Below are positions 881-20,169 of a DNA stretch of 20,169 bases, one piece after another; the stretch's first letter is position 1, and the number at the start of each line of letters is the position of its first letter. The position numbers were made by a program, and so were the translations under genes. The notes beneath the pieces are model-generated. The model saw only the letters and a list, made by a program, of their open reading frames with translations, did no database searches and had not been told where the DNA came from. The DNA is taken from IMG/VR virus record IMGVR_UViG_2879759574_000001. One strand, given 5' to 3'. The DNA comes from a virus. Its lineage: Duplodnaviria; Heunggongvirae; Uroviricota; Caudoviricetes.

Positions 881-905
881 ATAAAAACCCGCTCAACAGC
901 GGGTT
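881..905 (-). terminator. rho-independent terminator (tR'-like) downstream of the Q-like gene
   Basis: On the minus strand AACCCGC-TGTTGA-GCGGGTT followed by TTTAT; lies about 45 nt downstream of the predicted promoter at 952-980. Confidence 0.55.
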
Positions 906-951
906 CGTGAAAATTATCAACGGCAGACATACAAAGCCCATCGTTGAGAAA

Positions 952-980
952 ATCTTATCCATGTTTTTTGAAAAATGCAA
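952..980 (-). promoter_or_regulatory. sigma70-like promoter immediately downstream of Q (pR'-like late promoter candidate)
   Basis: Minus strand reads TTGCAT-17 nt-TAAGAT (plus-strand ATGCAA at 975-980, ATCTTA at 952-957); position between Q stop and a terminator mirrors the lambdoid pR'/qut/tR' arrangement. Confidence 0.4.
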
Positions 981-1011
981 GCTTCATGTCGCCATCTTCG
1001 GCGAAAATCAC

Positions 1012-1764
1012 TTATCTCGTCACCTTTCTCAATTGTGTTTCAGCATATGCTTCTTCCTGCCAGCACTTTGTTACTAGTTTATCAATTACGTCTGCATATC
1101 CTTTGTACCACTGATAATCAGTCAGGTCTGGAACCAGCTTCTGGACATGACGTCGTGCCAGTGTAGTTGGTAAACGGCTAAACCGGTTTCCATTGCAACG
1201 CCCACAAATCTTATAAACAGGCGTGCCATGAAGCCGGGTCCTTTTTTCATCCAGGACAATACCTTTACCCTTACACCCTCTGCACGCTGTGCTGACTTCT
1301 CCCTTACCATGACAATGCTGACATAGTTCCTTCACCCACTCTTCCTTGATAACAGATTCCCCGCTTCTGGAGTGTTTCACCACCTCGCGCAATACATTAT
1401 GAAATCCAGTACCAGCACAATGCTCACAGCGAGCCTTACTTGCCGCAGACCTAGAATAATCAGCAAAGGCAAAATTCACAAGGTAAGGAATGATCTGTAG
1501 CCGGGTTTCTTCACTCAATTTATTCAATGTCGGGTTATCCAGTGCCATCGCGTAATTGAGCAGACCTTCAATCGCAAACTGAGGATCCTGAACACCAACT
1601 TTTGCCAGGAATAAGGCAAACCCAAGCGGTGCTTTCGACTGCACCATCCCCTGCGCAGCCATCACATCCGTAATCGTTAAACCACCAGAGCCTGTCGCCG
1701 GTGCGTCATCGCTCAGTTTTGGAGATTTCGGGGAGTAATATTTCGGTAAGGCTTCAAGGTTCAT
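1012..1764 (-). CDS. lambdoid antitermination protein Q-like (250 aa, QuuQ/YdfT-like)
   Basis: 250-aa ORF with Cys clusters (CEHCAGTG, CQHCHGKG, CRGCKGKG, CGRCNG); length, zinc-binding motifs and position before a pR'-like promoter match Q-type antiterminators of Qin-like prophages; from memory, not searched. Confidence 0.5.
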   Translation of the reverse strand: MNLEALPKYYSPKSPKLSDDAPATGSGGLTITDVMAAQGMVQSKAPLGFALFLAKVGVQDPQFAIEGLLNYAMALDNPTLNKLSEETRLQIIPYLVNFAFADYSRSAASKARCEHCAGTGFHNVLREVVKHSRSGESVIKEEWVKELCQHCHGKGEVSTACRGCKGKGIVLDEKRTRLHGTPVYKICGRCNGNRFSRLPTTLARRHVQKLVPDLTDYQWYKGYADVIDKLVTKCWQEEAYAETQLRKVTR

Positions 1765-1824
1765 GCTCGTTCTCCACTTACGCCAGTACGCCTATTGCCA
1801 GCGCACGATCGATAAAACGAAATA

Positions 1825-2730
1825 TCAGCTCCAGCTGGGAACCATACTTCTCTTCAAATGCCACGGTATCCGCATGCAGCTCGTCGTGATGCTTTCTGCA
1901 CAAAGGCAACACAAAGAGGTCATGCGCTTTTGTACCCATTCCCCCTGACCGTGGCCTATCAGGTGGAGGGGATCATCAGCAGGCTTTCCACAACATGCAC
2001 ACGGCTGTGTCTTAACCCAGCGTGTGTACTTTTCATTAACCCAGCGGCGACGTTTTGGGCGTAACATAAAAGACTCCGGCGACTCCGGATCCACTTTCAG
2101 CGCCAGCACCTTTTTCACCTTATCCTGGATGATGCTGGTGGCAGGAACCGAAGGCACAAGGTCACTTTCCCGGGTGACAGACGGCACAACAGGCTTCGGT
2201 AATCTCAGTGCCTTACGGGCTGCACTTTCCGGTAAGGCATCCGCCAGGTCATTACGAATCAGCCACCAGCACAGTTCCGGCATTGTCACAACGTGACTAT
2301 CATCAAAACCGAGATCCCGACGCACAACAGACAACACCCAGCGGGCACAGTTATCCGTTGCCATTGATTCCAGCCGTTCCGTGAACTGATCGCGCAGCTG
2401 GTTATCGCAGTGCCAGCACAGACGGATTGCGCCCGGCGCGTGTCGCATTGTTGTCATGTTCTCGCTGTGCCAGTCGGAATGAGGCCACTGGCAGCCTTTT
2501 TCACGAAGTAACCAGCTTTCAAGACATTCCACGCCACCAGCACGACGGATCACTGCCTCATTGCGGAACACGGCCCGAACGTCAGGATCATCCGCCAGCG
2601 GTTGTGATGCCGCCGGAACAGCACCACTGGCGAAAGATGAATAACGTTCCGGCTCAGGCTCCAGCAGGACACGCCCCTGCATAAACAGGGGCATCAGCTC
2701 TGAACCTGGTCTGAACAATACGATCCCCAT
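1825..2730 (-). CDS. DUF968 (YdfU-like) prophage protein
   Basis: 301-aa ORF directly upstream of the Q-like gene as ydfU is in Qin-type prophages; C-terminal Cys/His-rich segment (CACCGKP...HLIGHGQ) consistent with DUF968; the C-terminal tail may be frameshifted. Confidence 0.4.
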   Translation of the reverse strand: MGIVLFRPGSELMPLFMQGRVLLEPEPERYSSFASGAVPAASQPLADDPDVRAVFRNEAVIRRAGGVECLESWLLREKGCQWPHSDWHSENMTTMRHAPGAIRLCWHCDNQLRDQFTERLESMATDNCARWVLSVVRRDLGFDDSHVVTMPELCWWLIRNDLADALPESAARKALRLPKPVVPSVTRESDLVPSVPATSIIQDKVKKVLALKVDPESPESFMLRPKRRRWVNEKYTRWVKTQPCACCGKPADDPLHLIGHGQGEWVQKRMTSLCCLCAESITTSCMRIPWHLKRSMVPSWS

Positions 2731-2771
2731 ACGCGGGCAATTTCAGGGGCAGTAGTGCTCTCACGGTCACC

Positions 2772-2975
2772 TCAATGAACGGTATCGAGCAGCTTTAACA
2801 GCTCAGGGAATCGGGATTCGAAGAAATGCGGCTGCGTCTCACGCGGATTTGCGGGACTGGTGATATTCTTGCCGAACATGCAGCCTTTCGCTGTCAGCGA
2901 CCAGAATTTTTTGATGTTGTTAATCGCTGTACGGCTGTATCGTTCGCGCTGTTCGACGATCCCCAGCTTCGCCAT
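2772..2975 (-). CDS. hypothetical 67-aa protein (possibly the displaced C-terminal segment of the upstream KilA-N gene)
   Basis: ORF only; sits in a different frame immediately downstream of the KilA-N ORF, whose own tail looks non-protein-like. Confidence 0.25.
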   Translation of the reverse strand: MAKLGIVEQRERYSRTAINNIKKFWSLTAKGCMFGKNITSPANPRETQPHFFESRFPELLKLLDTVH

Positions 2976-3031
2976 CTGGTGATATGCCTGATTAGCCGTA
3001 AGGCGGATACCATACTGCTTCAGCAGTGCAC

Positions 3032-3568
3032 TCAGTGACAGCGTGGGCGGCTTGAGCCATCAGGCGCGTCAGCAGGAGCATCAATGGCATAGCGCGGTGC
3101 CAGATTCGGTAAGCCAACAGCCTCCTGGAGTTTCTGACAGGCTCCAAGCACTGAAGAGTTAGACAGGTTTAATTCCCGGCGCATAAAGTCCAGCAGAATC
3201 ACACCAGCCTGCATCTTGTCAGCAGCCTGTCCGGATAATTTTTCCGGTGCACTGGTTACCATGTCGAAAGTACGGATCACCTTCAGATGGAATGACGGGC
3301 TGATCCACATTGCATAGGCATACACCAGTTCTTTGCAGACATACGTCCCTTGGTTATTTCCGCCACGAATAACGTTAACTGGTTCTATATTGACCGAGTT
3401 GCAAATCTGCAACTCGCTTATTAAACGTTCAGTTTGCTCATTGCGGAGCCAGAATGCAGGCTTATGCTTATCCAGAGAACCAGCAGCCCTGTGCAGATCG
3501 TTCAGGCTGTAACGCCCATAAGCATCACGACGAACTTCAATTCCATCAATAACCATCAGATTATTCAT
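3032..3568 (-). CDS. KilA-N domain protein (Roi/antirepressor-like)
   Basis: N-terminus MNNLMVIDGIEVRRDAYGRYSLNDLHRAAG...KPAFWLRNEQTERLI...YAYAMWISPSFHLKVIRTFD fits the KilA-N DNA-binding domain signature. Confidence 0.5.
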   Translation of the reverse strand: MNNLMVIDGIEVRRDAYGRYSLNDLHRAAGSLDKHKPAFWLRNEQTERLISELQICNSVNIEPVNVIRGGNNQGTYVCKELVYAYAMWISPSFHLKVIRTFDMVTSAPEKLSGQAADKMQAGVILLDFMRRELNLSNSSVLGACQKLQEAVGLPNLAPRYAIDAPADAPDGSSRPRCH

Positions 3569-3587
3569 ACTTCGTTTCTCCTCTTAA

Positions 3588-3977
3588 TCAGGCTGCTGCA
3601 CCCGCCGGTTTCTCGTACTTACTGATAGTGATCTCGACCTTCCCTTCCGGGATAACCGGTCCCCACTCCACCAGCATTCTTTTCACCTGACTGTCGTCTT
3701 CCCACACACCCGCGTGGGTCAGGGCGTCAAACAGCGCCTTGTTATAGTTGTTCAGATCGCGGATCCGGTTATCCGGAGGAAACAACACGATCTCCACTGA
3801 AGCAGGTGCCGACGTTGGTTTTGGCAGACGACGTAACTGCTCAACTATTGCTGCACACGCCGCGCTCTGGAATTTGCGCCCCGCTGCGCTTATCAGGCTC
3901 TTACCAGCAAACGCCCCTTTGTTGGGGTGTCGCCAGTACGTGTTCACGCTGGGCGGAAAAGGCAGTATTAGCTTCAT
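3588..3977 (-). CDS. rusA: RusA-family Holliday junction resolvase
   Basis: LPFPPSVNTYWRH...RDLNNYNKALFDALTHAGVWEDDSQV matches the RusA motif pattern (LPWPPS.N.YYRH...RDLDN..KA.FDALT.AG.W.DD.QV); start overlaps upstream stop (ATGA). Confidence 0.85.
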   Translation of the reverse strand: MKLILPFPPSVNTYWRHPNKGAFAGKSLISAAGRKFQSAACAAIVEQLRRLPKPTSAPASVEIVLFPPDNRIRDLNNYNKALFDALTHAGVWEDDSQVKRMLVEWGPVIPEGKVEITISKYEKPAGAAA

Positions 3978-4300
3978 ACTTTCAGGCCCCTCTCATGTAA
4001 CCAGTGGGCTGCACGCAGCTTGGCGTTTTCCTCACCGGCAAGCAGTGAGCGGATAATCCCGACCGCCTCGCTGTCGTCGTCCTTCACCGCGGTATGAAGA
4101 GTGATACCACGGGCCACACCACGCTTTATCGTGATGACGCCTTTTTTCTCCAGTGCTCTAAGATGCTCCACCGCTGCATTCACTGAACGGTATCCCAGCA
4201 TGGTTGCCACCTCCTGATTGGTTGGCGGGAAGCCACGTTCTTTCTGGTAAGAAATCAGCATATCCAGCACCTGCTGCTGGCATTGAGTTAACGTCGTCAT
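3974..4300 (-). CDS. LexA N-terminal DNA-binding-domain-like protein without S24 peptidase domain (108 aa)
   Basis: LTQCQQQVLDMLISYQKERGFPPTNQEVATMLGYRSVNAAVEHLRALEKKGVITIKRGVARGITL aligns at roughly 40 percent identity to my recollection of the E. coli LexA N-terminus ([65 protein letters not shown]); protein ends about 40 aa later with no Ser/Lys protease domain. Confidence 0.6.
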   Translation of the reverse strand: MTTLTQCQQQVLDMLISYQKERGFPPTNQEVATMLGYRSVNAAVEHLRALEKKGVITIKRGVARGITLHTAVKDDDSEAVGIIRSLLAGEENAKLRAAHWLHERGLKV

Positions 4301-4950
4301 GCCGCCATCTCCCTGACAAGTTTTTCTGCCTGCTGGCGAACTTGCGCCAGAAAGGCCTCACCACATGCCTCAAGTTCATCGCGCCCGATGTAGCTGATTG
4401 CCGGTCCCTTCCAGGTCTTGTCGAAAACGGCAATAGCACCAGCGAAGAAAGCACCGGTTGGCACCTGCTTCTCGTCTTTCGGGATAAACCAGGCAGGCAG
4501 TTCAAAACCAATACGCCCGCGAATAAAAGCAATATGATCCGCATCTTCCGGCCACCACACTTCGCTGGTGGCAGCTTTGATCAGGAAAACATAGCGCCCG
4601 CCCTTATCACGCATGGCACTGGCATGTTTCATGATGTAACGCATGCCGGTGATGTATTGCCCCTCATGCTGACTGGCGCGGCTGTATGGAGGATTTCCAA
4701 AGGCAGCACCTTTAAGCTCCGCAAGACGTTCTGACCAGTCATGCGCCAGCGCGTTGTCTTCCGCCGTGTAATACGCGGCACATTTGGCGTTATCACCGTC
4801 AGTAAACAGATCCAGAACAAACGGGCCAAACAGGGTGTTAATTCCCCAGAAAATGTTGTCCGGTGTGCGCCACTGATCGCCCACTTCCTTCAGTTCATGG
4901 GCTGGTTTGTTTCGCAACTCCACCAGCGCCTGGCAATATTTATTACTCAT
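4297..4950 (-). CDS. phage N6-adenine DNA methyltransferase (Dam family)
   Basis: FGNPPYS motif (NPPY catalytic signature), QWRTPDNIFWG N-terminal motif typical of phage Dam; preferred start is ATG at 4950 (MSNKYCQ), overlapping the upstream stop (TAATG); the track start at 4983 is a GTG. Confidence 0.75.
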   Translation of the reverse strand: MSNKYCQALVELRNKPAHELKEVGDQWRTPDNIFWGINTLFGPFVLDLFTDGDNAKCAAYYTAEDNALAHDWSERLAELKGAAFGNPPYSRASQHEGQYITGMRYIMKHASAMRDKGGRYVFLIKAATSEVWWPEDADHIAFIRGRIGFELPAWFIPKDEKQVPTGAFFAGAIAVFDKTWKGPAISYIGRDELEACGEAFLAQVRQQAEKLVREMAA

Positions 4951-5438
4951 TAAGCCCCCACGTAATTCCCTGACAGATACCACTCATCACCCGATACAGC
5001 GCGCTTGCTGCTTTTCCGTAAGCACCGCTCACGACGCGCCAGAAAATTGTTTCGTTCTGGCTGGGAGTGGCTTTCACGGAATGCCGCCATCCACACCGTT
5101 GCAGCACGACGGTATAAGCCCCTGGACTCCAGTTCTTCAGCCTGGCGGGTCAGGCACAAAATCACCCGGGGATCGTTAGTGCCGACATAGAAATTGCGCA
5201 CAGGTCTGGTTTCTCGAACTGATTGTGGTCCCGGTTCCTGCGCTCTCTCAGTCAGGCGCGGGAAATGTCTGCGTGTATCTCCTTCACAACGGTGAGCCAC
5301 ACGCCCACTCTGACGTAACTTGCTTGCAGACTGCAGAACGCGCTGCCGTGAGTAACCTGCAAAAGCATCCGCAATGTCTCCGGAAGTACACCCCGGATGG
5401 GCTTCAATGAATTTCTGAACGTCATTCAAAAGACTCAT
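4950..5438 (-). CDS. YfdN-like protein with C-terminal PerC-like motif (163 aa)
   Basis: Start set at ATG 5438 (MSLLNDVQKF...); the longer track ORF has a low-complexity N-extension overlapping the rep gene. C-terminal AEELESRGLYRRAATVWMAAF shares the PerC-type motif with the ORF at 9181-9462. Confidence 0.45.
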   Translation of the reverse strand: MSLLNDVQKFIEAHPGCTSGDIADAFAGYSRQRVLQSASKLRQSGRVAHRCEGDTRRHFPRLTERAQEPGPQSVRETRPVRNFYVGTNDPRVILCLTRQAEELESRGLYRRAATVWMAAFRESHSQPERNNFLARRERCLRKSSKRAVSGDEWYLSGNYVGA

Positions 5439-6006
5439 GCTCACCCCTGAATCCTGCCGGGATCTGGCTGTAGTCCACGTTGTCGTAACTGGCTTTGAAG
5501 TACGGGTCTTCACGTTTTTCTGTGTGCGTGCAGACGGACGGCGATAAGCGCAGGGAAAGCTCATCCCATTTTTCCCGCAACTTCGACGGGCTGAGCACGT
5601 TACGGCACCAGAACGGATCGCGGCTGACGCGGCTGTACATCTCGCAGATTTGTTTGTGAGTACGGCCATCCTGTACACACATCAGGCGAATTTCGTTTGC
5701 CCAGGCTGTCCAGTTCGGTTCTTTGGGACGAACCACCTCGCCGTCACATTCGGCAGCCTGCTCGTACAGGGCGATGATTTTTTTCCAGAGCCACTGTGCG
5801 CAGGTCAAATCATCCTGCGTCCCCCACTGGCGCTTTTTAGGGCTGAATACAACCGCATCAGGATGGCGAGTTAAAAAATCCTGTTCAGCCGTCTGCGTGT
5901 CCGGTTGCGAAGCGTCCGGACGAGAAGGTTTTTTATCTGACGGATCATGTTTTGATTTTACTGACGGATCCCCGCCAGATTCTGACGGGTGAAAACCCGC
6001 TTTTTT
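5422..6006 (-). pseudogene. 3' portion of phage replication-initiation gene, separated from its 5' portion (13478-13860) by IS66
   Basis: Frame continues in phase from 13860 across the 8-bp duplication: ...SKSGKKA | GFHPSESGGDPSVKSKHDPSDKK...; the track start at 6021 is a TTG inside the IS66 end. Confidence 0.65.
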
Positions 6007-6043
6007 GTAAGCGTGCAGCAAGAACCGTATTGACGGGGATGTG

Positions 6044-7580
6044 TTATTCAGTCGGCAGTGCTACGCGCCAGGGGAGCAGTTCGCCGACCCGGTTTATCGG
6101 CCAGTCGGCTATGACGTCAAGTACATAGCGGAGGTAGCTTTCTGGCTCCACTCCGTTCAGTTTGCACGTCCCGATCAGGCTGTACAGCAGCGCTCCCCGC
6201 TCTCCTCCATGATCCGAACCGAAGAACAGGTAGTTTTTGCGGCCCAGACTGACCATCCGCAACGCATTTTCAGCGATGTTATTGTCCGCCTCAGCCCAGC
6301 CATCATCTGCATAGTACGTCAGCGCCGGCCACTGGTTCAGGGCGTATGCGAACGCTTTCGCCAGTTCTGAGTGTCGCGACAGGGTTTTCATCTTTTCACG
6401 CAGCCAGCTTTCCAGGGATTTCAGCAGCGGTTTCGTTTTCAACTGACGTTCGGCAAGGCGCTGCTCCGCCGTCATTCCCCTTATCTCTGCCTCGATGGCG
6501 TACAGTTCGCCGATCCGTTTCAGCGCTTCCTCCGTCAGGGCTGACGGGGTGCGAACGTGCACATCGTGGATTTTACGGCGGGCGTGAGCCCAACAGGCGG
6601 CTTCCGTTATCCGGCCATCCCGGTACAGCTCGTTGAACCCGGCGTATGCATCCGCCTGCAGTACACCACTGAACCCCGCAAGATGGGTCTGCGGATGGAT
6701 GCCTTTTCTGTCCGGGCTGTAAGCGAACCACACCGCCGGCGCCAGCGTTGACCCGGCGTTACGGTCGTCACGAACGTAGGTCCATAACCGCCCGGTCTTC
6801 GTTTTCTTATTGCCTGGCAACAGCACCGGGACAGGCGTGTCATCAGCATGGAGCTTACCGTCAGTCAGCACATAGTCCTGAAGCGCTTCTTCCAGCGGTG
6901 ACAGTAGCCGGCAGCATGCATCCACCCAGCCCGACAGCAGTGAACGACTCAGCTCCACGCCCTGGCGGCCGTACATTTCAGACTGGCGGTACAGCGGGGT
7001 GTGCTCTGCATACTTTGAGATCAGCACGCGGGCCAGCAGCCCCGGTCCTGCGATACCCCGCTCGATGGGCCGTGAAGGCGCGGGGCCTGCACGATGGCAT
7101 CGCACTGAGTACAGGCATGCTTTTCACGTACAGTCCGGATAACCCGGAAGACGCTGCGCATCAACTCCAGCTGTTCGGCGGCATCCTCACCCGGATAGCT
7201 CAGTGAGCCTCCACATTCCGGGCAGCATGACGCTGCCGGCAGCAGCCGTTTTTCATCGCGGGGGAGTGATTCGGGAACGGTTTGCGGGTGCGGGTTTGAC
7301 GCAGCGGGCGCTGCACGGCCGGGTCGTCAACCCGACCGGTAAGGGTATCACTTTCTTTCTGAAGTGCCTTCAGGTCAGCTTCCATCTGTGCGATACGACG
7401 GGAGACTTTTTCGGAGCGGCTGCCGAAGTTCATCCGGCGCAGCTTATCCAGCTGTGCCTGCAGATGGTCTATTTCGCGTTCACGCTCGTTCAGCTTTTCC
7501 AGCAGGGCACGGTTCAGCGCCTCCTGTTCGGCAAGGAGACGTTTCAGTGCATTGATATCGTCAGGAAGTGAGCTGCTCAT
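6044..7580 (-). pseudogene. IS66 tnpC (transposase) disrupted by two 1-bp deletions
   Basis: Split into ORFs 7200-7580 and 6044-7105; compared with intact copy 2, one G/C is missing in the homopolymer run at 7273-7275 and one in the run at 7082-7085. Confidence 0.8.
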
Positions 7581-7628
7581 ACCGGGTATATTACCAGGCT
7601 CATTCAGCGTCGACCAGGATAAAGAGGC

Positions 7629-7976
7629 TTACAACATAGTCAGGGACGTAAGCAGTCTTTTAGGCTGCCGCCAGTCGATACCTTCAAGGAGCATCGCCAG
7701 CTGTGCCGGTGTGAGGAACACTTTGCCATCCCGGGCTGACGGCCAGGCGAAGCGGCCGCGCTCCAGCCGTTTGGTCAGCAGACACAGTCCATCGCCGGTA
7801 GACCAGAGGAGCTTTACCTGACTGCCATTACGCCCACGGAAGATAAAAACGTGACCTGACATCGGATCGTCTTTCAGCGTCGTCTGCACCTTTGCCGCCA
7901 GGCCGTTGAAGCCATTTCTCATATCGGTGATACCGGCAACCAGCCAAATTTTGGTCCCGGAAGGTAACGGGATCAT
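7629..7976 (-). CDS. IS66 TnpB (Orf2), 115 aa
   Basis: Identical protein to ORF 14329-14676; typical IS66 orf2 position with ATGA overlap to tnpA. Confidence 0.85.
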   Translation of the reverse strand: MIPLPSGTKIWLVAGITDMRNGFNGLAAKVQTTLKDDPMSGHVFIFRGRNGSQVKLLWSTGDGLCLLTKRLERGRFAWPSARDGKVFLTPAQLAMLLEGIDWRQPKRLLTSLTML

Positions 7977-8374
7977 CGCTTCAGTTCCTGTATCAGCAGA
8001 GTCAGGAGCTTTTCGCTGACATTGCCATTGAAGCGGAGCGTCCCGTGCCGGAACGTTACCTCACAGCTGATACTGAGGGTTTCCGGATCCTCTGCGAGCG
8101 ATTCTGGCTGTTCGGCAGCTGCATCGAGAGTCACAGGAAGTAGCTGGGGGCTCTCTGAAGAAGGTAATAGCAGCTTTCCCTCGCGCCATTGTTGTCGCCA
8201 TTTGAACAACAGATTGGCGTTAATGCCATTTTCAAGAGCAAGTTTTGAGATGGATATCCCGGGTTCACAGGAGGCAGCAACGAGCTGCTGTTTAAATTCG
8301 GGAGGATAATTAGGGCAGCCTTTTCGCCTGCCGGGATTCACATTTTTCTGCATATCTGACACTTTGGTTCCCAC
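7973..8374 (-). CDS. IS66 TnpA (Orf1), 133 aa, intact in this copy
   Basis: 133-aa ORF; the copy-2 counterpart is broken into 80-aa and 78-aa ORFs by a 1-bp deletion. Confidence 0.8.
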   Translation of the reverse strand: MGTKVSDMQKNVNPGRRKGCPNYPPEFKQQLVAASCEPGISISKLALENGINANLLFKWRQQWREGKLLLPSSESPQLLPVTLDAAAEQPESLAEDPETLSISCEVTFRHGTLRFNGNVSEKLLTLLIQELKR

Positions 8375-8465
8375 TACTTATTTGGTGGACACCACTTTGT
8401 CTAATTCGTCAGATTCTGACCAGACGGTTCAGGCTGTACGCTTACTTTCCAATGGGCACTCATGT

Positions 8466-8909
8466 TTATACGCTGACCTTACAATCAATCACCGCTTTTA
8501 AATTTTCAGCATTGCTTCCCTGACGCTTCCACGCGCTGTAAATATCTTTATCCCACGCTTTACCAGCTTTTGTTTGATAGCCTGCTTCATTGATCCGTTC
8601 AGCTATCACACGCCCATTATCAAATCCCTGTTGGATGGTATCGGCAATGATCTTTATAACTGCCGTTTCGTTATATGGCTTTGGTGGGATGTTCGGCTTT
8701 CCGGCAATAAGCGACGCAGCGGCTTTTTCCATGCGCTCCACCAGCCCAAGCATTCGTGAATCAATAGACTTTTCCGGCTGTCCCAGCTTCATGCGAATCG
8801 CATCAACAAGCCAGGAGGTTTTATCCCCTCCAGAAGCGAGAACAGACCGATTAAACTCATCCTGCAATTCAGATGGGATGCGGAACGCGATCAGATTAGA
8901 TTTGCTCAT
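8466..8909 (-). CDS. hypothetical DNA-binding protein, putative ribbon-helix-helix N-terminus
   Basis: MSKSNLIAFRIPSELQDEFNRSVLASGGDKTSWLVDAIRMKL has a strand-helix-helix pattern like Arc/CopG-type RHH; divergent from the iteron array and PerC-like gene; start ambiguous (ATG 8921 or 8909), weak RBS. Confidence 0.35.
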   Translation of the reverse strand: MSKSNLIAFRIPSELQDEFNRSVLASGGDKTSWLVDAIRMKLGQPEKSIDSRMLGLVERMEKAAASLIAGKPNIPPKPYNETAVIKIIADTIQQGFDNGRVIAERINEAGYQTKAGKAWDKDIYSAWKRQGSNAENLKAVIDCKVSV

Positions 8910-8940
8910 TGCAAAGACCATATCAGTGAGTAATATCCAT

Positions 8941-8970
8941 ACAGTATACCACTGTATAACACTGTTATAC
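8941..8970. repeat. three tandem ~10-bp repeats ACAGTATAC / CACTGTATAA / CACTGTTATAC in the promoter region of the RHH-like gene
   Basis: Direct reading of sequence; half-site-like CTGT/ACAG elements but not a canonical CTGT-N8-ACAG LexA box. Confidence 0.3.
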
Positions 8971-9022
8971 GCTCAAATATCAGCCAGAAAATAACGGACC
9001 AATCACAAAGCTATCGCTGTGT

Positions 9023-9145
9023 TGTTGGTTCAGAGCTGGGCTGTGTTGGTTCAAAATGAGTTGATGTTGGTTCAATATTTTAGAAAAAACATAATAAAAA
9101 CAACGATCTTTACAAATTGAACCAACTGAACCAACTGAACCAACA
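9023..9145. repeat. iteron array: 3 direct TGTTGGTTCA repeats at 21-bp spacing, AT-rich spacer, then 3 tandem inverted copies TGAACCAAC
   Basis: Direct copies at 9023-9032, 9044-9053, 9065-9074; inverted copies at 9118-9126, 9127-9135, 9136-9144; the inverted set overlaps the -35 region of a TATAAT (9162-9167) upstream of the PerC-like gene. Confidence 0.6.
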
Positions 9146-9180
9146 CCTTTTTGCTTATCTATATAATCTGAGAGGCAGAA

Positions 9181-9462
9181 ATGATAAGGGACAGGAAAGC
9201 TGAAGAGCTGGAGTCAAAAGGGCTATACCGGAGAGCTGCCGCACGATGGATGGAAGTCATGCTGTTATGCACCGAGGACGATGATCGGGAATGGATAAAG
9301 CGCCGCCGTGAAACGTGTCTGGAGAACGTGAAGCGCCCGCCCGTGAAGGTTGAGGAATTTGGCGACCTGCATAAAGCTGTTACCGAAACGCAACACCGCA
9401 TGGGGATAGCGCAACCGAACGGTAACGCCTTCCGGTTAAATGGCGGCAAGAGGCAAAGGTAG
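9181..9462 (+). CDS. PerC-family transcriptional activator-like protein (93 aa)
   Basis: MIRDRKAEELESKGLYRRAAARWMEVML...RRRETCLENV matches the PerC/Pch signature as I recall it; good RBS (GAGAGG) before ATG. Confidence 0.5.
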   Translation: MIRDRKAEELESKGLYRRAAARWMEVMLLCTEDDDREWIKRRRETCLENVKRPPVKVEEFGDLHKAVTETQHRMGIAQPNGNAFRLNGGKRQR

Positions 9463-9758
9463 ACCACCAGAGGGAAATCATCCTCTGGCTGGCGGTTTCT
9501 GGTATTTCGGGACAAGTACGCGCGCGCGTAGCACCCAATCGGTGAGGAAATAGCGGCGACCTGAATGGTCAAAATCACAACGCAGCTATCCCCGTAAGCA
9601 GCGCTTAACGGAATAGCAGTAACCTGAATCCAGTGGGGAGGGGGTAGTCAAATCTCTACAGCCCTGACTATCCGGGACTGCCCGCCCATCGTTTTTTTAT
9701 ACCCGCGAAAAATGAAATTTAATCCGGGCGTGTTTCATCCTTCCAGAGGGTATGACGT

Positions 9759-9944
9759 ATGACACCACGCGAAATAGCCTTATTGACCATCGCCAAACTT
9801 GAGCACGGAGGCCACCAGCTTACACAGGCAGATCAACGGGAGATAGAACGATCAGTTAATGCCGATATAGCCCGGCGCGACAGGTTCCGCGAAATGATGC
9901 GAGCACCTGCCTACCAGTGGAAGAAGCCAGCGCCGCGCAGGTAG
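9759..9944 (+). CDS. hypothetical 61-aa basic protein
   Basis: ORF with possible RBS AGAGGG upstream; no recognisable motif. Confidence 0.25.
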   Translation: MTPREIALLTIAKLEHGGHQLTQADQREIERSVNADIARRDRFREMMRAPAYQWKKPAPRR

Positions 9945-10064
9945 ATATGGGATTATTCCACATGTACCTTATGCGTATTAAGCAAATTTCCTTTATTCAC
10001 CTTTACAGAATTGTGAGTACGTCAGTATCGTTATCCTTCCGATTCGCATTTATTCAGGATTTGC

Positions 10065-10959: not shown

Positions 10960-11187
10960 GGCTGGCTGATTCCTTATTGTGGGATAGCACTATCATACAA
11001 TAAGTGGGTTAAAGGGAGAGCGTTACCGCCTGATATGCTGTATGAATAACAACCAAATTTCAGGGGCGGAAAAAGATATGGGGGTACTTTTGGGGGTATC
11101 TATAAAAAATGAACAATAAAAAAGGCAACAAAAACAAAGCTTATCGCCTATGTGTATTGTTCCCATTATCCCATTTAAATCAATAAG

Positions 11188-11691
11188 TTACACATCATTA
11201 GTACGTTCCTTATTTCTTGACTGGGACAAATTTGGGACCGATGGGTTCAGAATCGAGTCTATTTGCCGTGCGTGTTCGGTAAGGTGATTAGGTGCGAGGT
11301 GAGCATATCGACGAACCATTTCGATAGACTCCCAGCCTCCCATTTCCTGTAACACTGATAACGGGACTCCGGCTTGAACCAGCCAACTTGCCCAGGTGTG
11401 TCTCAAGTCGTGAAATCTGAAATCATCAATACCTGCTCGTCTCAGCGCCGCTTTCCAGGCTGTGTTTGCGTCATACCGCATCTTCCTGACTGTTGGCGCT
11501 TTCGTTCCGTCTGGTTTGGTACAGCTTTCCTTATACACAAATACCCAACGGTGATGATTCCCGATTTGTTTTTTCAATACGCGACATGCAGTATCATTCA
11601 GCGCAACGCCAATTGCGCGGTTTGATTTACTCTCTTCCGGGTTTATCCATGCCACCCGGTGAGGTGTACTGGCAATAGCGGACACTACCAT
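11188..11691 (-). pseudogene. tyrosine recombinase (phage integrase), C-terminal catalytic half only
   Basis: Contains HDLRHTWAS (His-x-x-Arg box) and VRRYAHL (catalytic Tyr); the N-terminal roughly 200 aa expected for an integrase are absent and the ORF abuts an IS3-family fragment. Confidence 0.75.
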
Positions 11692-12221: not shown

Positions 12222-12293
12222 TGAAGTGGCACACTGAATTTGGCCACCTGAACAGAGGTGATATGCTCACCTCAGAACAACACAGGTGCTCCA

Positions 12294-13861
<1,568 letters not shown>

Positions 13862-13931
13862 TAAGCGTACAGCCTGAACCGTCTGGTCAGAATCTGACGA
13901 ATTAGACAAAGTGGTGTCCACCAAATAAGTA

Positions 13932-14332
13932 GTGGGAACCAAAGTGTCAGATATGCAGAAAAATGTGAATCCCGGCAGGCGAAAAGGCTGCCCTAATTAT
14001 CCTCCCGAATTTAAACAGCAGCTCGTTGCTGCCTCCTGTGAACCCGGGATATCCATCTCAAAACTTGCTCTGAAAATGGCATTAACGCCAATCTGTTGTT
14101 CAAATGGCGACAACAATGGCGCGAGGGAAAGCTGCTATTACCTTCTTCAGAGAGCCCCCAGCTACTTCCTGTGACTCTCGATGCAGCTGCCGAACAGCCA
14201 GAATCGCTCGCAGAGGATCCGGAAACCCTCAGTATCAGCTGTGAGGTAACGTTCCGGCACGGGACGCTCCGCTTCAATGGCAATGTCAGCGAAAAGCTCC
14301 TGACTCTGCTGATACAGGAACTGAAGCGATGA
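13932..14332 (+). pseudogene. IS66 tnpA with 1-bp deletion
   Basis: CTTGCTCTGAAAATGG here versus CTTGCTCTTGAAAATGG in copy 1; ORF split into 13932-14174 and 14096-14332. Confidence 0.75.
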
Positions 14333-14676
14333 TCCCGTTACCTTCCGGGACCAAAATTTGGCTGGTTGCCGGTATCACCGATATGAGAAATGGCTTCAAC
14401 GGCCTGGCGGCAAAGGTGCAGACGACGCTGAAAGACGATCCGATGTCAGGTCACGTTTTTATCTTCCGTGGGCGTAATGGCAGTCAGGTAAAGCTCCTCT
14501 GGTCTACCGGCGATGGACTGTGTCTGCTGACCAAACGGCTGGAGCGCGGCCGCTTCGCCTGGCCGTCAGCCCGGGATGGCAAAGTGTTCCTCACACCGGC
14601 ACAGCTGGCGATGCTCCTTGAAGGTATCGACTGGCGGCAGCCTAAAAGACTGCTTACGTCCCTGACTATGTTGTAA
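14329..14676 (+). CDS. IS66 TnpB (Orf2), 115 aa
   Basis: Identical to 7629-7976. Confidence 0.85.
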   Translation: MIPLPSGTKIWLVAGITDMRNGFNGLAAKVQTTLKDDPMSGHVFIFRGRNGSQVKLLWSTGDGLCLLTKRLERGRFAWPSARDGKVFLTPAQLAMLLEGIDWRQPKRLLTSLTML

Positions 14677-14724
14677 GCCTCTTTATCCTGGTCGACGCTG
14701 AATGAGCCTGGTAATATACCCGGT

Positions 14725-16263
14725 ATGAGCAGCTCACTTCCTGACGATATCAATGCACTGAAACGTCTCCTTGCCGAACAGGAGGCGCTGAACCGTGCCC
14801 TGCTGGAAAAGCTGAACGAGCGTGAACGCGAAATAGACCATCTGCAGGCACAGCTGGATAAGCTGCGCCGGATGAACTTCGGCAGCCGCTCCGAAAAAGT
14901 CTCCCGTCGTATCGCACAGATGGAAGCTGACCTGAAGGCACTTCAGAAAGAAAGTGATACCCTTACCGGTCGGGTTGACGACCCGGCCGTGCAGCGCCCG
15001 CTGCGTCAAACCCGCACCCGCAAACCGTTCCCCGAATCACTCCCCCGCGATGAAAAACGGCTGCTGCCGGCAGCGTCATGCTGCCCGGAATGTGGAGGCT
15101 CACTGAGCTATCCGGGTGAGGATGCCGCCGAACAGCTGGAGTTGATGCGCAGCGTCTTCCGGGTTATCCGGACTGTACGTGAAAAGCATGCCTGTACTCA
15201 GTGCGATGCCATCGTGCAGGCCCCCGCGCCTTCACGGCCCATCGAGCGGGGTATCGCAGGACCGGGGCTGCTGGCCCGCGTGCTGATCTCAAAGTATGCA
15301 GAGCACACCCCGCTGTACCGCCAGTCTGAAATGTACGGCCGCCAGGGCGTGGAGCTGAGTCGTTCACTGCTGTCGGGCTGGGTGGATGCATGCTGCCGGC
15401 TACTGTCACCGCTGGAAGAAGCGCTTCAGGACTATGTGCTGACTGACGGTAAGCTCCATGCTGATGACACGCCTGTCCCGGTGCTGTTGCCAGGCAATAA
15501 GAAAACGAAGACCGGGCGGTTATGGACCTACGTTCGTGACGACCGTAACGCCGGGTCAACGCTGGCGCCGGCGGTGTGGTTCGCTTACAGCCCGGACAGA
15601 AAAGGCATCCATCCGCAGACCCATCTTGCGGGGTTCAGTGGTGTACTGCAGGCGGATGCATACGCCGGGTTCAACGAGCTGTACCGGGATGGCCGGATAA
15701 CGGAAGCCGCCTGTTGGGCTCACGCCCGCCGTAAAATCCACGATGTGCACGTTCGCACCCCGTCAGCCCTGACGGAGGAAGCGCTGAAACGGATCGGCGA
15801 ACTGTACGCCATCGAGGCAGAGATAAGGGGAATGACGGCGGAGCAGCGCCTTGCCGAACGTCAGTTGAAAACGAAACCGCTGCTGAAATCCCTGGAAAGC
15901 TGGCTGCGTGAAAAGATGAAAACCCTGTCGCGACACTCAGAACTGGCGAAAGCGTTCGCATACGCCCTGAACCAGTGGCCGGCGCTGACGTACTATGCAG
16001 ATGATGGCTGGGCTGAGGCGGACAATAACATCGCTGAAAATGCGTTGCGGATGGTCAGTCTGGGCCGCAAAAACTACCTGTTCTTCGGTTCGGATCATGG
16101 AGGAGAGCGGGGAGCGCTGCTGTACAGCCTGATCGGGACGTGCAAACTGAACGGAGTGGAGCCAGAAAGCTACCTCCGCTATGTACTTGACGTCATAGCC
16201 GACTGGCCGATAAACCGGGTCGGCGAACTGCTCCCCTGGCGCGTAGCACTGCCGACTGAATAA
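14725..16263 (+). CDS. IS66 TnpC transposase, intact (512 aa)
   Basis: Uninterrupted 512-aa ORF with N-terminal coiled-coil/leucine-zipper region and CxxC...CxxC zinc motif (CCPECGG...CTQCDA). Confidence 0.85.
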
Positions 16264-16300
16264 CACATCCCCGTCAATACGGTTCTTGCTGCACGCTTAC

Positions 16301-16775: not shown

Positions 16776-16796
16776 AGAACCCGCCCAGCGGGTTCT
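16776..16796 (-). terminator. 9-bp GC-rich stem-loop overlapping the stop codon of the 201-aa gene (weak terminator candidate)
   Basis: AGAACCCGC-CCA-GCGGGTTCT; no clear U-tract afterwards. Confidence 0.3.
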
Positions 16797-17400
16797 AAAG
16801 TGTTTTAATGATTGTCGTGATAATTAATTGGCTCATCATTTTTTGGTCTGGTATAGTTATGGACCACTTTATATTCTTTAGGCTGTTATGTTTTTTATTG
16901 ACCTTAAGCTCTCTCTTTGCTTCAGAGATAATATCGTCTAGTAATACTTTTAATTTATCAAGTCTTGACTTGTGGGCATCTATCAACTCTATACTATCAA
17001 ACTCCCATTGTATAAATAGATTTTCTTCATTTTCAATGAATGAACGGATTTTATCCCCACACTCTTCTGTTAAGAATAATGAAGATAGCTCACCTATTCT
17101 ACTGAGTTTTTCAAGCTCATTAGAGAAAGATTTGCTAAGGATTTCATTTTCTTCTTTTGATTTGTAACTAAAGTAGGTTGGGAATTGTGAAGCGTGATGT
17201 AACTCATGTTTATACCAATAGTCAGCTGTGTTTTTTAGAAGATAAACACAGTCAACTAATTGCGTATACAAATCTATTCTTTTGTCCCACCATTTTTCTT
17301 TATAATAACGGCCGAGTGCATATCGCGCAGTTAAGTAAGCTGCGATTGAGCCTGTAACAAGTCCGATAATTACCTTTGATATAAGGTCATGCCAATCCAT
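16795..17400 (-). CDS. hypothetical membrane-anchored protein (201 aa, one N-terminal TM helix, AT-rich)
   Basis: ORF MDWHDLISKVIIGLVTGSIAAYLTARYAL... has a single hydrophobic helix followed by a charged, Lys/Glu-rich soluble region; codon usage and base composition are clearly more AT-rich than neighbours; RBS AGGA. Confidence 0.5.
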   Translation of the reverse strand: MDWHDLISKVIIGLVTGSIAAYLTARYALGRYYKEKWWDKRIDLYTQLVDCVYLLKNTADYWYKHELHHASQFPTYFSYKSKEENEILSKSFSNELEKLSRIGELSSLFLTEECGDKIRSFIENEENLFIQWEFDSIELIDAHKSRLDKLKVLLDDIISEAKRELKVNKKHNSLKNIKWSITIPDQKMMSQLIITTIIKTL

Positions 17401-17852
17401 TTTTATTTTTCCTACATTATGTTATATAATTGTTCATATCATACAATTGTTGAGTATAGATGTCTCGTTATTCATCAACATTTACTCCTGTTAAATTAGG
17501 GGGAGTATGTATTAAAAATATTCATCTGGGTCGTCTAAATATTTTTGATAAACTAATAGCAATAACACTATCAGTATTGCCTGCCCTCACGTCGTTCTTG
17601 CTCTCGCGCGATTTTTAACTAAACACTAGCAGGATTTATCATGGTGCTACGCTACATTTACTTGTAGGGAGCTAAACAGATCATTGACGCTGAAAATATT
17701 CAAATTGTTAAAGAGCGAAGCGTCCTATGGGCGTTTTGTTGCTAACGAATCATCTTGGACTTCATATGCTCCAGGCGGCTACTTCGTGGGCATCCTGCCT
17801 GTTTGTTGTTTCGTTTTGGTACATTGTGTGTCCATGGGTACATTGTCAAGTA

Positions 17853-17876
17853 TAAAAAAACCTGCCGAAGCAGGTT
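17853..17876 (-). terminator. rho-independent terminator downstream of the cI-like gene
   Basis: Minus strand AACCTGC-TTCG-GCAGGTT followed by TTTTTTTA. Confidence 0.6.
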
Positions 17877-17888
17877 CATAAATATTGA

Positions 17889-18563
17889 TTAGGCCTTTAT
17901 TTTGTATCTTCTTGGTTTTCCCGAGAAAATCACAGTGCCAATTATAGAGCAATTACCGTTAATCTTAATGTAGGGCTCAGGCCAGTTTGGGTGTAATGCT
18001 TTGAGATAACGCTGTGTTCCATCTTCTATCAATCGCTTGAAGGTGATTTCGCCTGTATCGTGCATCAACGCAATAACGTCGTCACCGTGGCAAGCAGGGA
18101 CTTCAGGATCAACAAAAATCATGTCTCCCGGACGGTACTCATCAATCATTGAATCACCAATCACCCGCAAGATATAAGTCATTTCGCCACAGGGTACAGG
18201 GCAGGGATAAGTTTCTGCTGTGCTCAAATCAACCTCAGAATAGCCAACTTCTTTCCATGCTCCGGCCTGTACCCATGATATGACAGGGACTAACGTTATT
18301 TGTTTGTTAGTGATTGAAACATCAGGTTTTTTTGTGATGTTCGTTGTCTGGTGTTCTTGATCGAGCCATCCGATAGGCAAGTCGAAACATTTTTCAATGT
18401 GTCGTGCCATGCTGTCACCGATATTTTTAGTAGCACCATCTCCCATAAACCTGCTGGTCTGGGTTGGCTCGCGATCAATCATAGTGGCAAAGGAAGAATT
18501 CCCGCCAACACCATCTCTCAGTTTTCTGGCGTTAGACCGCCGGATGTCATGGATTGTTTTCAT
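17889..18563 (-). CDS. CI-like phage repressor with C-terminal S24 (LexA-type) peptidase domain
   Basis: C-terminal half has VIGDSM (catalytic Ser) and FKRL (Lys) with ...GDMIFVDPE...; N-terminus resembles phage CI HTH domains; divergent from a Cro-like gene. Confidence 0.8.
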   Translation of the reverse strand: MKTIHDIRRSNARKLRDGVGGNSSFATMIDREPTQTSRFMGDGATKNIGDSMARHIEKCFDLPIGWLDQEHQTTNITKKPDVSITNKQITLVPVISWVQAGAWKEVGYSEVDLSTAETYPCPVPCGEMTYILRVIGDSMIDEYRPGDMIFVDPEVPACHGDDVIALMHDTGEITFKRLIEDGTQRYLKALHPNWPEPYIKINGNCSIIGTVIFSGKPRRYKIKA

Positions 18564-18580
18564 AACGAAATTAAAACCCT

Positions 18581-18647
18581 TGTACCGCTAAGGTACAAGT
18601 ATCTTGAAGGTTCATTTCAATCATGTAACATGTACACTTGAGGTACA
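18581..18647. promoter_or_regulatory. divergent cI/cro control region with two TGTAC-N7-GTACA palindromic operator candidates
   Basis: TGTACCGCTAAGGTACA (18581-18597) and TGTACACTTGAGGTACA (18631-18647) lie between the cI start (18563) and cro start (18654). Confidence 0.45.
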
Positions 18648-18653
18648 TATTGT

Positions 18654-18854
18654 ATGAAAGCGTATTGGGACTCTTTAACCAAAGAACAGCAGGGTGAGTT
18701 GGCCGGAAAAGTTGGCTCAACACAAGGCTACTTACGGCTGGTTTTCAATGGCTATAAAAAAGCCAGTTTTGTGCTGGCTAAAAAACTTGAGCAATGCACG
18801 TCAGGTGCAATTACGAAATCTGACTTAAGACCGGATATCTATCCGAAAGATTAG
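18654..18854 (+). CDS. Cro-like small HTH regulator (66 aa)
   Basis: Position divergent from cI; STQGYLRLVFNGYKKASFVLAKKLEQCTSGAITKSDLRPDIY resembles Cro/YdaS-type proteins. Confidence 0.55.
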   Translation: MKAYWDSLTKEQQGELAGKVGSTQGYLRLVFNGYKKASFVLAKKLEQCTSGAITKSDLRPDIYPKD

Positions 18855-18885
18855 CAGAACACTTTCAATTTTTAACCACAGAACG

Positions 18886-19455
18886 ATGAGGCTAATCGTG
18901 GGTAAGCATCACTGGAAAATAGAAAAACAGCCTGAGTGGTACGTGAAAGCTGTCAGAAAAACTATCGCAAAGTTGCCGGGTGGTTACGCTGAAGCGGCTG
19001 ACTGGCTCGATGTAACAGAAAACGCTTTATTCAACCGCCTTCGTGCAGATGGCGATCAGATTTTCCCGCTGGGATGGGCAATGGTTTTACAGCGTGCTGG
19101 TGGCACTCACTTCATTGCTGATGCTGTGGCGCAGTCTGCAAATGGCGTCTTTGTGTCTCTTCCTGACATCGAGGATGTGGACAACGCCGATATTAACCAG
19201 CGTCTGCTGGAAGTCATTGAACAGATCGGCAGTTATTCAAAACAGATTCGTTCAGCAATCGAAGACGGTGTAGTGGAACCGCATGAGAAGACAGCAATTA
19301 ACGACGAGCTGTATCTCTCAATTTCGAAGCTGCAGGAGCATGCAGCACTTGTCTACAAAATTTTTTGCATTTCAGAAAGTAATGACGCCCGCGAGTGTGC
19401 AGCTCCGGGCGTCGTGGCGTCGATTGCTTCTGGTTGTGGAGAAACTAACGCATGA
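18886..19455 (+). CDS. CII-like/early regulatory protein (tentative)
   Basis: Position right after cro; 189-aa ORF; start uncertain (ATG 18886 has a poor RBS, GTG 18898 has GAGG upstream); family assignment is from weak recollection only. Confidence 0.3.
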
Positions 19456-19790
19456 ACAGTTTAACAACACACTACCGTCGCTCGCAACTGATTGCGCTTT
19501 CTGTACCGGGTGGAAAAGCGAAGGTGGAATATTGCTATGCAGTGAATGTACCAGGTGACAGGGAAATTGTAACCCACAGCTTTGCAGAGTGGGCTGTGGG
19601 TGATTTCAACCGGCAGAAGGAGACAGTCCTTTGCGACAAGTTAACCGCTGGTTCAAAGATCACTACGGAGTGCCCGTCAGAGTCATTCGTTGGGAGCCGG
19701 AAACACAACGGGTTATCTACCTCCGCGGAGGTTATGAGCATGAATGCTTCAGTCCGCTCGAACAGTTTCGTCGTAAATTCAGGGAAATAG
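19452..19790 (+). CDS. hypothetical protein; likely frameshifted, with an alternative frame open to the IS911 junction
   Basis: Annotated frame ends [32 protein letters not shown]; the -1 frame reads [53 protein letters not shown] and looks more protein-like. Confidence 0.3.
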
Positions 19791-19794
19791 AGGT

Positions 19795-20169
<375 letters not shown>

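Follow-up and report, generated by a model that had tools for sequence, protein, structure and literature searches.

A LexA-type DNA-binding protein without a peptidase domain in an SfV-like prophage remnant and its relatives

A LexA-like gene lies between dam and rusA

IMG/VR virus record IMGVR_UViG_2879759574_000001 is a 20,169-nucleotide stretch of caudoviral DNA, which we analysed over its full length and refer to as the window. It contains a small LexA-like gene (3974-4300, minus strand) that encodes 108 amino acids followed by a TGA stop codon. The gene is equivalent to orf42 of phage SfV and mEp460_046 of phage mEp460, and its product is a member of PHROG 362. Its ATG overlaps the TGA stop of a phage N6-adenine methyltransferase gene (Dam; 4297-4950, minus strand) in the sequence ATGA at 4297-4300, and its own TGA stop overlaps the ATG of the gene for the RusA Holliday-junction resolvase (3588-3977, minus strand) in a second ATGA at 3974-3977. 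The ATG of dam is in turn overlapped by the TAA stop of a PerC-family, YfdN-like gene of 162 amino acids that corresponds to SfV orf40 (4950-5438, minus strand; TAATG at 4948-4952). All three overlaps can be read directly from the sequence, as stated in an earlier prediction made from these letters without database searches (the original prediction).

The LexA-like protein carries a LexA-type winged helix-turn-helix. The Pfam profile LexA_DNA_bind (PF01726) matched residues 1-65 with all 65 profile positions covered (E = 3e-19), BLASTP aligned residues 1-86 of E. coli LexA at 43% identity (E = 8e-22), and the closest solved structure was the LexA DNA-binding domain 1lea (E = 7e-16). PADLOC returned weak generic winged-helix matches and nothing else. 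An AlphaFold2 (AF2) model built from an alignment of 34 family sequences (predicted local distance difference test score, pLDDT, 82.7) placed helices at residues 6-22, 28-35 and 40-52, a two-strand wing at 56-58 and 66-68, a disordered acidic linker at 71-76 and two further helices at 77-87 and 93-103. The modelled fold superimposed on LexA at 1.0-1.6 Å, and on the LexA-DNA crystal structure at 1.0 Å, and matched 3jso and 1leb. On the minus strand, the winged-helix domain (residues 1-70) is encoded at 4091-4300 and includes the recognition helix region (residues 39-52, SVNAAVEHLRALEK; 4145-4186), located from the alignments and the published LexA contact residues (PMC3091678). It is followed by the linker AVKDDD (4073-4090), which was modelled with low confidence (pLDDT below 50), and by a C-terminal two-helix tail (residues 77-108; 3977-4072) that is supported by both the AF2 model and family-wide conservation. 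Profile match, sequence identity and fold thus confirm the LexA winged-helix domain proposed in the original prediction.

The same prediction held that the protein has no S24 peptidase domain, and this also stands. A Pfam profile search found no match to Peptidase_S24 (PF00717) in the 108 residues, and the protein ends before the Ser119/Lys156 dyad of LexA, which is absent. It aligned only to positions 1-91 of the 203 in the NCBIfam lexA equivalog TIGR00498 and scored 70.9 bits, below the curated cutoff of 110.95. Compared with E. coli LexA (TIGR00498; PDB 1lea, 1jhh, 3jso), the window protein shares the N-terminal winged-helix domain but lacks the S24 peptidase/dimerisation domain and a conserved Ala-Gly site, has a replacement at Glu44 and ends in a 35-residue two-helix tail that LexA does not have. 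The genes differ too, one belonging to a phage early operon and lexA being an autoregulated chromosomal gene. With neither an S24 domain nor a conserved Ala-Gly site, the LexA-like protein could not be inactivated by RecA-stimulated self-cleavage. Structurally, the open reading frame (ORF) is almost certainly an intact S24-less LexA-type DNA-binding protein with a helical tail.

The protein belongs to a conserved phage family

Proteins 95-99% identical to the LexA-like protein are encoded by SfV (orf42), SfII, SfIV, mEp460, phage cdtI, Stx2a- and Stx2c-converting phages and others, with 61 phage records matching. Residues 1-108 aligned to positions 1-106 of the 106-position PHROG 362 profile ('transcriptional repressor'; E = 6.1e-59), tail included, and relatives from Cronobacter and Klebsiella matched this profile too. 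About a quarter of complete E. coli genomes (1352 of 5426) contain at least 80% of a 3.4-kb query around the gene (2700-6100); none contains more than 97% of it, at 97.5% identity. Searches with phmmer and with profiles extended the family to Cronobacter, Klebsiella, Enterobacter, Atlantibacter, Kosakonia, Salmonella and Citrobacter, with proteins of 105-135 amino acids at 40-60% identity.

Close homologues (64-99% identity) are all 104-108 amino acids long and none matches PF00717. Longer database entries are fusions with Dam or RusA made at the overlapping codons; the Dam-LexA-like and LexA-like-RusA fusion ORFs (P0121, P0254, P0253) are probably frameshifts at the ATGA overlaps. Among S24-bearing proteins, even the nearest are similar in the DNA-binding domain only, at no more than 58% identity. 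The LexA-like protein is thus not a recent truncation of an ordinary repressor; the original prediction had named a merely truncated ordinary repressor as fatal to its proposal. The C-terminal tail is present in all members of the extended family. In a non-redundant set of 20 members, used for all residue counts given here, it is as conserved as the DNA-binding domain (A79, L82/83, L86/87, A93, invariant A97, F/W/Y100, L101 and G105). Pairwise ratios of nonsynonymous to synonymous substitution rates (dN/dS) were 0.15-0.3, indicating purifying selection. These comparisons point to an established, selected family and not to a recently truncated repressor.

Public databases already annotate the gene, the domain it encodes and its family, and phage-encoded truncated versions of LexA have been described before as a kind. 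mEp460_046 is annotated as 'LexA DNA binding domain protein' and the NCBI cluster name for the family is 'LexA family transcriptional regulator'. Some deposits (KF030445.1, LR595862.1, AB285204.1) name the protein 'SOS-response repressor and protease LexA' or 'RecA-mediated autopeptidases'. Since it has no peptidase domain, the names 'protease LexA' and 'RecA-mediated autopeptidase' are wrong, and the database names, including 'transcriptional repressor', are homology transfers. Full-text literature searches of an incomplete searchable collection found no study of the PHROG 362-type family, and only one analogue surfaced, gp6 of Bacillus phage GIL01. At present the gene is an ordinary and already catalogued phage gene. 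Other arrangements of the domain were also seen, namely a protein that joins a LexA_DNA_bind domain to the C-terminal portion of DUF968/HNHc_6 (P0158) and tandem double LexA_DNA_bind proteins (P0131, P0147).

Operon context across relatives

The gene order in the window is PerC, Dam, LexA-like, RusA, KilA-N, DUF968, Q. In SfV the order is cI, cro, orf36-39 (replication), orf40 (PerC-like), dam, orf42, rusA, orf44 (KilA-N), orf45 (DUF968), Q, and mEp460 has the same arrangement. Lying between the replication genes and Q, the LexA-like gene is part of the nin-like group of delayed-early accessory genes that are transcribed from pR. More distant relatives keep this position with changed neighbours. 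Cronobacter has PerC, Dam, LexA-like, RusA, Rha/ANT, DUF968, Q; Salmonella has PerC, Dam, a C5 methylase, LexA-like, RusA, KilA-N, DUF968, Q; and Kosakonia has PerC, a D12-class methylase, LexA-like, RusA. In Enterobacter, too, the homologue is found between replication genes and Q, but in the order 85-amino-acid ORF, LexA-like, 67-amino-acid ORF, RusA, DUF968, Q, with no adjacent PerC, methyltransferase or KilA-N gene. Klebsiella has DinI, an 85-amino-acid ORF, LexA-like, a 67-amino-acid ORF and DUF968, and the 85-amino-acid ORFs of Klebsiella and Enterobacter are 55% identical.

In four of six subfamily contexts the slot directly upstream of the LexA-like gene holds a methyltransferase, drawn from three unrelated Pfam families (PF05869 Dam, PF00145 C5 and PF02086 D12). 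Each of these junctions is tight, with either a 4-nucleotide overlap or a 9-nucleotide gap (L007 6826-8004; L013 3403-6004; L014 5125-5991; window 4297-4950). In SfIV a PerC-family gene adjoins the LexA-like gene in place of the methyltransferase. In intact phages the LexA-like gene is translationally coupled to an upstream DNA methyltransferase gene and usually to rusA downstream.

LexA base contacts in the recognition helix

LexA contacts bases through S39, N41, A42, E44 and E45 of helix III (PMC3091678). The window protein keeps four of these five (S39, N41, A42 and E45) and has Val in place of E44. Its recognition helix, SVNAAVEHLR, differs from that of E. coli LexA at three of ten positions. 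Across the PHROG 362-type family S39 and N41 are essentially invariant and A42 is nearly so. The named top members of the family all come from Enterobacteriaceae, which have one SOS box in common.

SOS-type boxes in the window and in related phages

SOS boxes were scored with a position-weight matrix made from 20 E. coli SOS boxes; a score of 20 bits was reached in none of 300 randomised sequences of 37 kb. With at most one mismatch allowed, CTGT-N8-ACAG occurred 11 times in the window against 7.3 expected.

SOS boxes were found near the gene in the branch with proteins of 130-135 amino acids. In Klebsiella prophages the LexA-like homologue lies two genes downstream of dinI, which is itself preceded by a perfect SOS box (26.9 bits), and no terminator was predicted between the SOS box with dinI and the 85-amino-acid ORF. 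In Enterobacter prophages the cluster with the homologue begins with an SOS box of 20.8 bits that immediately follows a -10-like element. These SOS-headed, co-oriented strings of genes (Klebsiella, L004 7385-8393; Enterobacter, L016 5531-6408) suggest SOS-inducible expression of the S24-less protein in this branch.

A second location is the start of a late-region DNA adenine methylase gene between Q and the holin gene. Codons 3-9 contain the SOS-type box TACTGTAAAAATAAACAGTG (22 bits) in SfV (L002, 34170-34189), mEp460 (L003, 41021-41040), phiNP (L011, 7106-7125) and Klebsiella phage Kp4866-6 (L010, 7111-7130). In Kp4866-6 the right arm is changed to ATCCAGCA, which keeps CAG and fits CTG-N10-CAG. 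No sigma-70-like promoter was detected just upstream of the methylase-start box. Near-perfect SOS boxes (25.5 and 26.7 bits) also lie inside cI-like S24 repressor genes, about 55-80 codons in, in mEp460 (L003, 31970-31989; TACTGTTTTTACATACAGTA) and the Cronobacter prophages (4190-4209 in L007), and might mark an internal or antisense LexA-controlled promoter. A search for perfect palindromes with 7-nucleotide arms in the early-right and late regions of SfV and mEp460 found nothing both shared and LexA-like beyond the SOS-type box, and identified no operator.

Possible function of the LexA-like protein

The original prediction proposed an uncleavable binder of SOS boxes, which is plausible. The reading we lean towards, as possible and not as probable, is that the LexA-like protein, itself insensitive to RecA, takes the place of cleaved LexA at a limited number of CTGT-type sites. 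The protein would be made only after loss of the prophage repressor or upon infection; in the Klebsiella and Enterobacter branch its expression may instead be driven by a LexA-controlled promoter. It would dimerise through its helical tail and bind LexA-like (CTGT-type) half-sites with a recognition helix that has S39, N41, A42 and E45, standing in at some LexA-type operators when host LexA has been destroyed. Such operators could belong to the host, to the phage itself or to other prophages of the same cell. In favour of this reading are the four retained base-contact residues and, as circumstantial links to SOS, the boxes that head the Klebsiella and Enterobacter clusters and the strong SOS-type boxes elsewhere in phages with the gene.

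In the window protein and its relatives, we infer, the tail is a dimerisation or partner-binding module in place of the S24 domain. Operator recognition by LexA needs the C-terminal dimer, and the LexA mutants E45K and E71K bind DNA more tightly (10.1101/2020.07.07.191791). Given that LexA needs dimerisation and gains affinity when charge is removed at E45 or E71, the combination of a replacement dimerisation module with an uncharged residue 44 is reasonable. By this analogy the family, lacking the S24 dimer, has plausibly gained the tail as a dimerisation element and lost negative charge from its recognition helix. Since position 44 is substituted, a limited and altered set of sites is likelier than the whole SOS regulon.

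A wider role, which we consider unlikely, would be that of an uncleavable LexA surrogate of lambdoid phages, the Stx2a- and Stx2c-converting and Shigella serotype-converting phages included, that shuts down LexA-type operators again, in a RecA-independent manner, after the destruction of host LexA. The genes kept repressed would be recA and others of the SOS response, antirepressors of rival prophages under LexA control, or defence or lysis functions inducible by SOS, and the coupling of the surrogate to a methyltransferase would offset SOS triggered by methylation. PsiB and DinI act on the RecA or LexA protein. If the surrogate role were correct, the LexA-like protein would share with DinI-like phage proteins, plasmid PsiB and GIL01 gp7 the purpose of damping or reshaping the host SOS response, but would act on DNA where these modulators act on the RecA or LexA protein. 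It would be the DNA-level counterpart of PsiB and DinI, and a dinI homologue does lie two genes upstream of the Klebsiella relative. Such a surrogate could shape the induction of Stx phages in strains with several prophages. If SOS-type boxes are bound, about a quarter of complete E. coli genomes, including those with Stx2-converting prophages, would carry a RecA-proof repressor of LexA-controlled promoters, with a bearing on competition between prophages, on the dynamics of Shiga-toxin phage induction and on SOS-dependent mutagenesis under antibiotics. If an operator of the phage's own is bound instead, the protein is one more small phage regulator.

Several results weigh against a role at LexA-type operators. 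Position 44 is never Glu in the family (none of 20; A in 7, F in 4, T in 3, V in 2, L in 2 and N in 1), and is Glu in 10 of the 12 S24-bearing LexAs recovered by the same search. Position 45 also varies, being E in 11, D in 4 and another residue in 5, so that E or D is present in 15 of the 20; the Klebsiella branch has Leu-Leu at positions 44-45. As the hosts of these subfamilies have the same SOS box, such variation is easier to reconcile with operators that change along with each phage than with one fixed SOS box of the host. In the window itself no site scored above 10.1 bits with the SOS matrix and no canonical SOS box was present. phiNP has the methylase-start box with no LexA-like gene annotated in the 14 kb of flank examined, so this box need not be a site for the LexA-like protein. 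As for the tail, no structural analogue of the domain plus tail was found and the hydrophobic moment of its helices gave no significant amphipathicity; dimerisation through it is our inference. Lastly, gp6, the best-studied and only characterised phage LexA-domain protein, has its own operator and acts as an activator. SOS-box binding is thus not clearly favoured by the comparative data.

The precedent of gp6 underlies the rival that has to be taken most seriously, a regulator specific to the phage, in which the LexA fold has been re-targeted to a subfamily-specific operator of the phage's own, where the protein would serve as repressor or activator of a phage promoter and would not control host SOS genes directly. 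Such a regulator might time Q, the late genes or moron genes. We regard this as a real possibility that still falls short of probable. gp6, a truncated LexA homologue, has been shown experimentally to bind GaCACAnnTGTGaC and to activate the late promoter P3 (PMC6182141) from a palindrome of its own at about -43.5. Like the window protein it is phage-encoded, consists of a LexA DNA-binding domain with no protease domain, comes from an early region and is RecA-insensitive. Re-targeting also fits the variation of positions 44 and 45 between subfamilies in hosts with identical SOS boxes, the family-wide loss of Glu44, and the constant location of the gene just upstream of Q and the late region. 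However, the palindrome search yielded no candidate operator in SfV or mEp460, there is no separate promoter region before the gene on which autoregulation could act, and the E. coli subfamily helix departs from that of LexA at only three of ten positions. The analogy with gp6 is moreover one of architecture only. gp6 has 66 amino acids and no helical tail, where the window protein has an additional 35 residues, and it comes from a tectivirus of a Gram-positive host; no BLASTP alignment between the two had E ≤ 100. Since sequence similarity was not detectable, gp6 and the window protein are taken as independent captures from different host lineages.

The remaining alternatives are weaker to differing degrees. 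The recurrence of a methyltransferase from three unrelated families in four of six upstream slots, with the junction preserved, would suit a controller linked to the methyltransferase, either regulating its gene in the manner of the C-proteins of restriction-modification systems or blunting SOS that arises from methylation-dependent restriction of foreign methylation. Heitman and Model are said to have described, in J Bacteriol in 1987, that foreign methylation provokes SOS through methylation-dependent restriction. But no methyltransferase is adjacent in the Klebsiella and Enterobacter relatives, the neighbour in SfIV is a PerC-family gene, and conserved order with swapped alleles is normal in mosaic lambdoid genomes and does not imply functional coupling; we therefore find this link improbable. 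That the gene is a decaying relic, a functionless lexA pseudogene carried passively, might be thought from this copy, which sits in a degraded prophage with apparently disrupted KilA-N and DUF968 neighbours and an operon cut off from pR. Yet relatives from E. coli through to Klebsiella that are 40-50% identical keep the full length, tail included, dN/dS is low, the gene is present in plaque-forming phages and no close S24-bearing parent exists, all of which makes a relic very improbable. Hardly credible, finally, is a cleavable decoy whose LLAGEE segment serves, on RecA filaments, as a substrate for LexA, CI or UmuD-type proteases acting in trans. HMMER and BLASTP alignments do run through LexA residues 75-86 and set A88-G89 opposite LexA A84-G85 (LLAGEE versus VAAGEP), but this pair is unconserved in close homologues (LLANEE, LLAKEE, LLVGEE) and absent from distant ones (VERES, LTRKE, IDDQP), and AF2 predicts the segment to be helical and not strand-loop. 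Lack of conservation thus ruled out LLAGEE as the relic of a cleavage site.

The window copy lies in a scrambled prophage remnant

Structurally the window protein does not differ from other PHROG 362 members, but its gene lies in a rearranged and defective prophage. By blastn, 883-5515 (minus strand) is collinear with SfV 29048-33697 at 95% identity, running from the end of orf39 through orf40, dam, orf42, rusA, orf44 and orf45 to Q. This block is inverted relative to a cI-cro-orf36 block at 17744-19465, which matches SfV in direct orientation, and a fragment of int (11171-11659) is stranded between the two. ORFs that resemble transposases of IS1, the IS66 family and the IS3 family of insertion sequences (IS) also lie between the blocks, their translations having been judged by inspection and not by a family search. 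The ORFs noted along with the scrambled blocks are at 161-858, 6044-8374, 13932-16266, 12258-13864 and 19831-20169. The window is an IS-scrambled remnant of an SfV-like prophage, probably from Shigella or a close E. coli relative.

Because the LexA-like operon is inverted, with IS elements and a foreign island between it and cI-cro, it is severed from pR. The LexA-like gene is intact here but probably silent in this genome. Co-expression with recombination and methylation functions, as the original prediction envisaged, is therefore inapplicable to this copy, whose operon is IS-separated from cI-cro-pR. Dam, RusA and Q are also intact in the window. The KilA-N ORF (3032-3568, minus strand) appears damaged, with 178 amino acids against the 269 of SfV orf44. 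The DUF968 gene (1778-2730, minus strand) is split into overlapping ORFs at 1825-2730 and 1778-1939, which suggests a frameshift. Between the IS66-family copy and the cI-like gene is an ORF of 201 amino acids (16795-17400, minus strand) with an N-terminal hydrophobic segment and a lysine- and asparagine-rich composition; the slot next to cI in lambdoid prophages often holds moron or exclusion genes.

In 115 E. coli genomes the foreign island (8445-10050) is found next to yagU/ykgJ; no phage record in our collection contains it. The original prediction had proposed repeats at 8941-8970 as a target of the LexA-like protein. This candidate was rejected, since the half-sites are in a non-SOS arrangement and the DNA belongs to this unrelated island, which none of the sequenced phages with the gene contains. 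The repeats at 8939-8970 comprise three ACTGT-type half-sites upstream of a gene for 151 amino acids. A further set at 9023-9146 lies before a PerC-family gene and has TGTTGGTTCA six times, in three direct copies with a spacing of 21 bp and three inverted ones. The repeat pattern of the island looks like that of iterons or operators.

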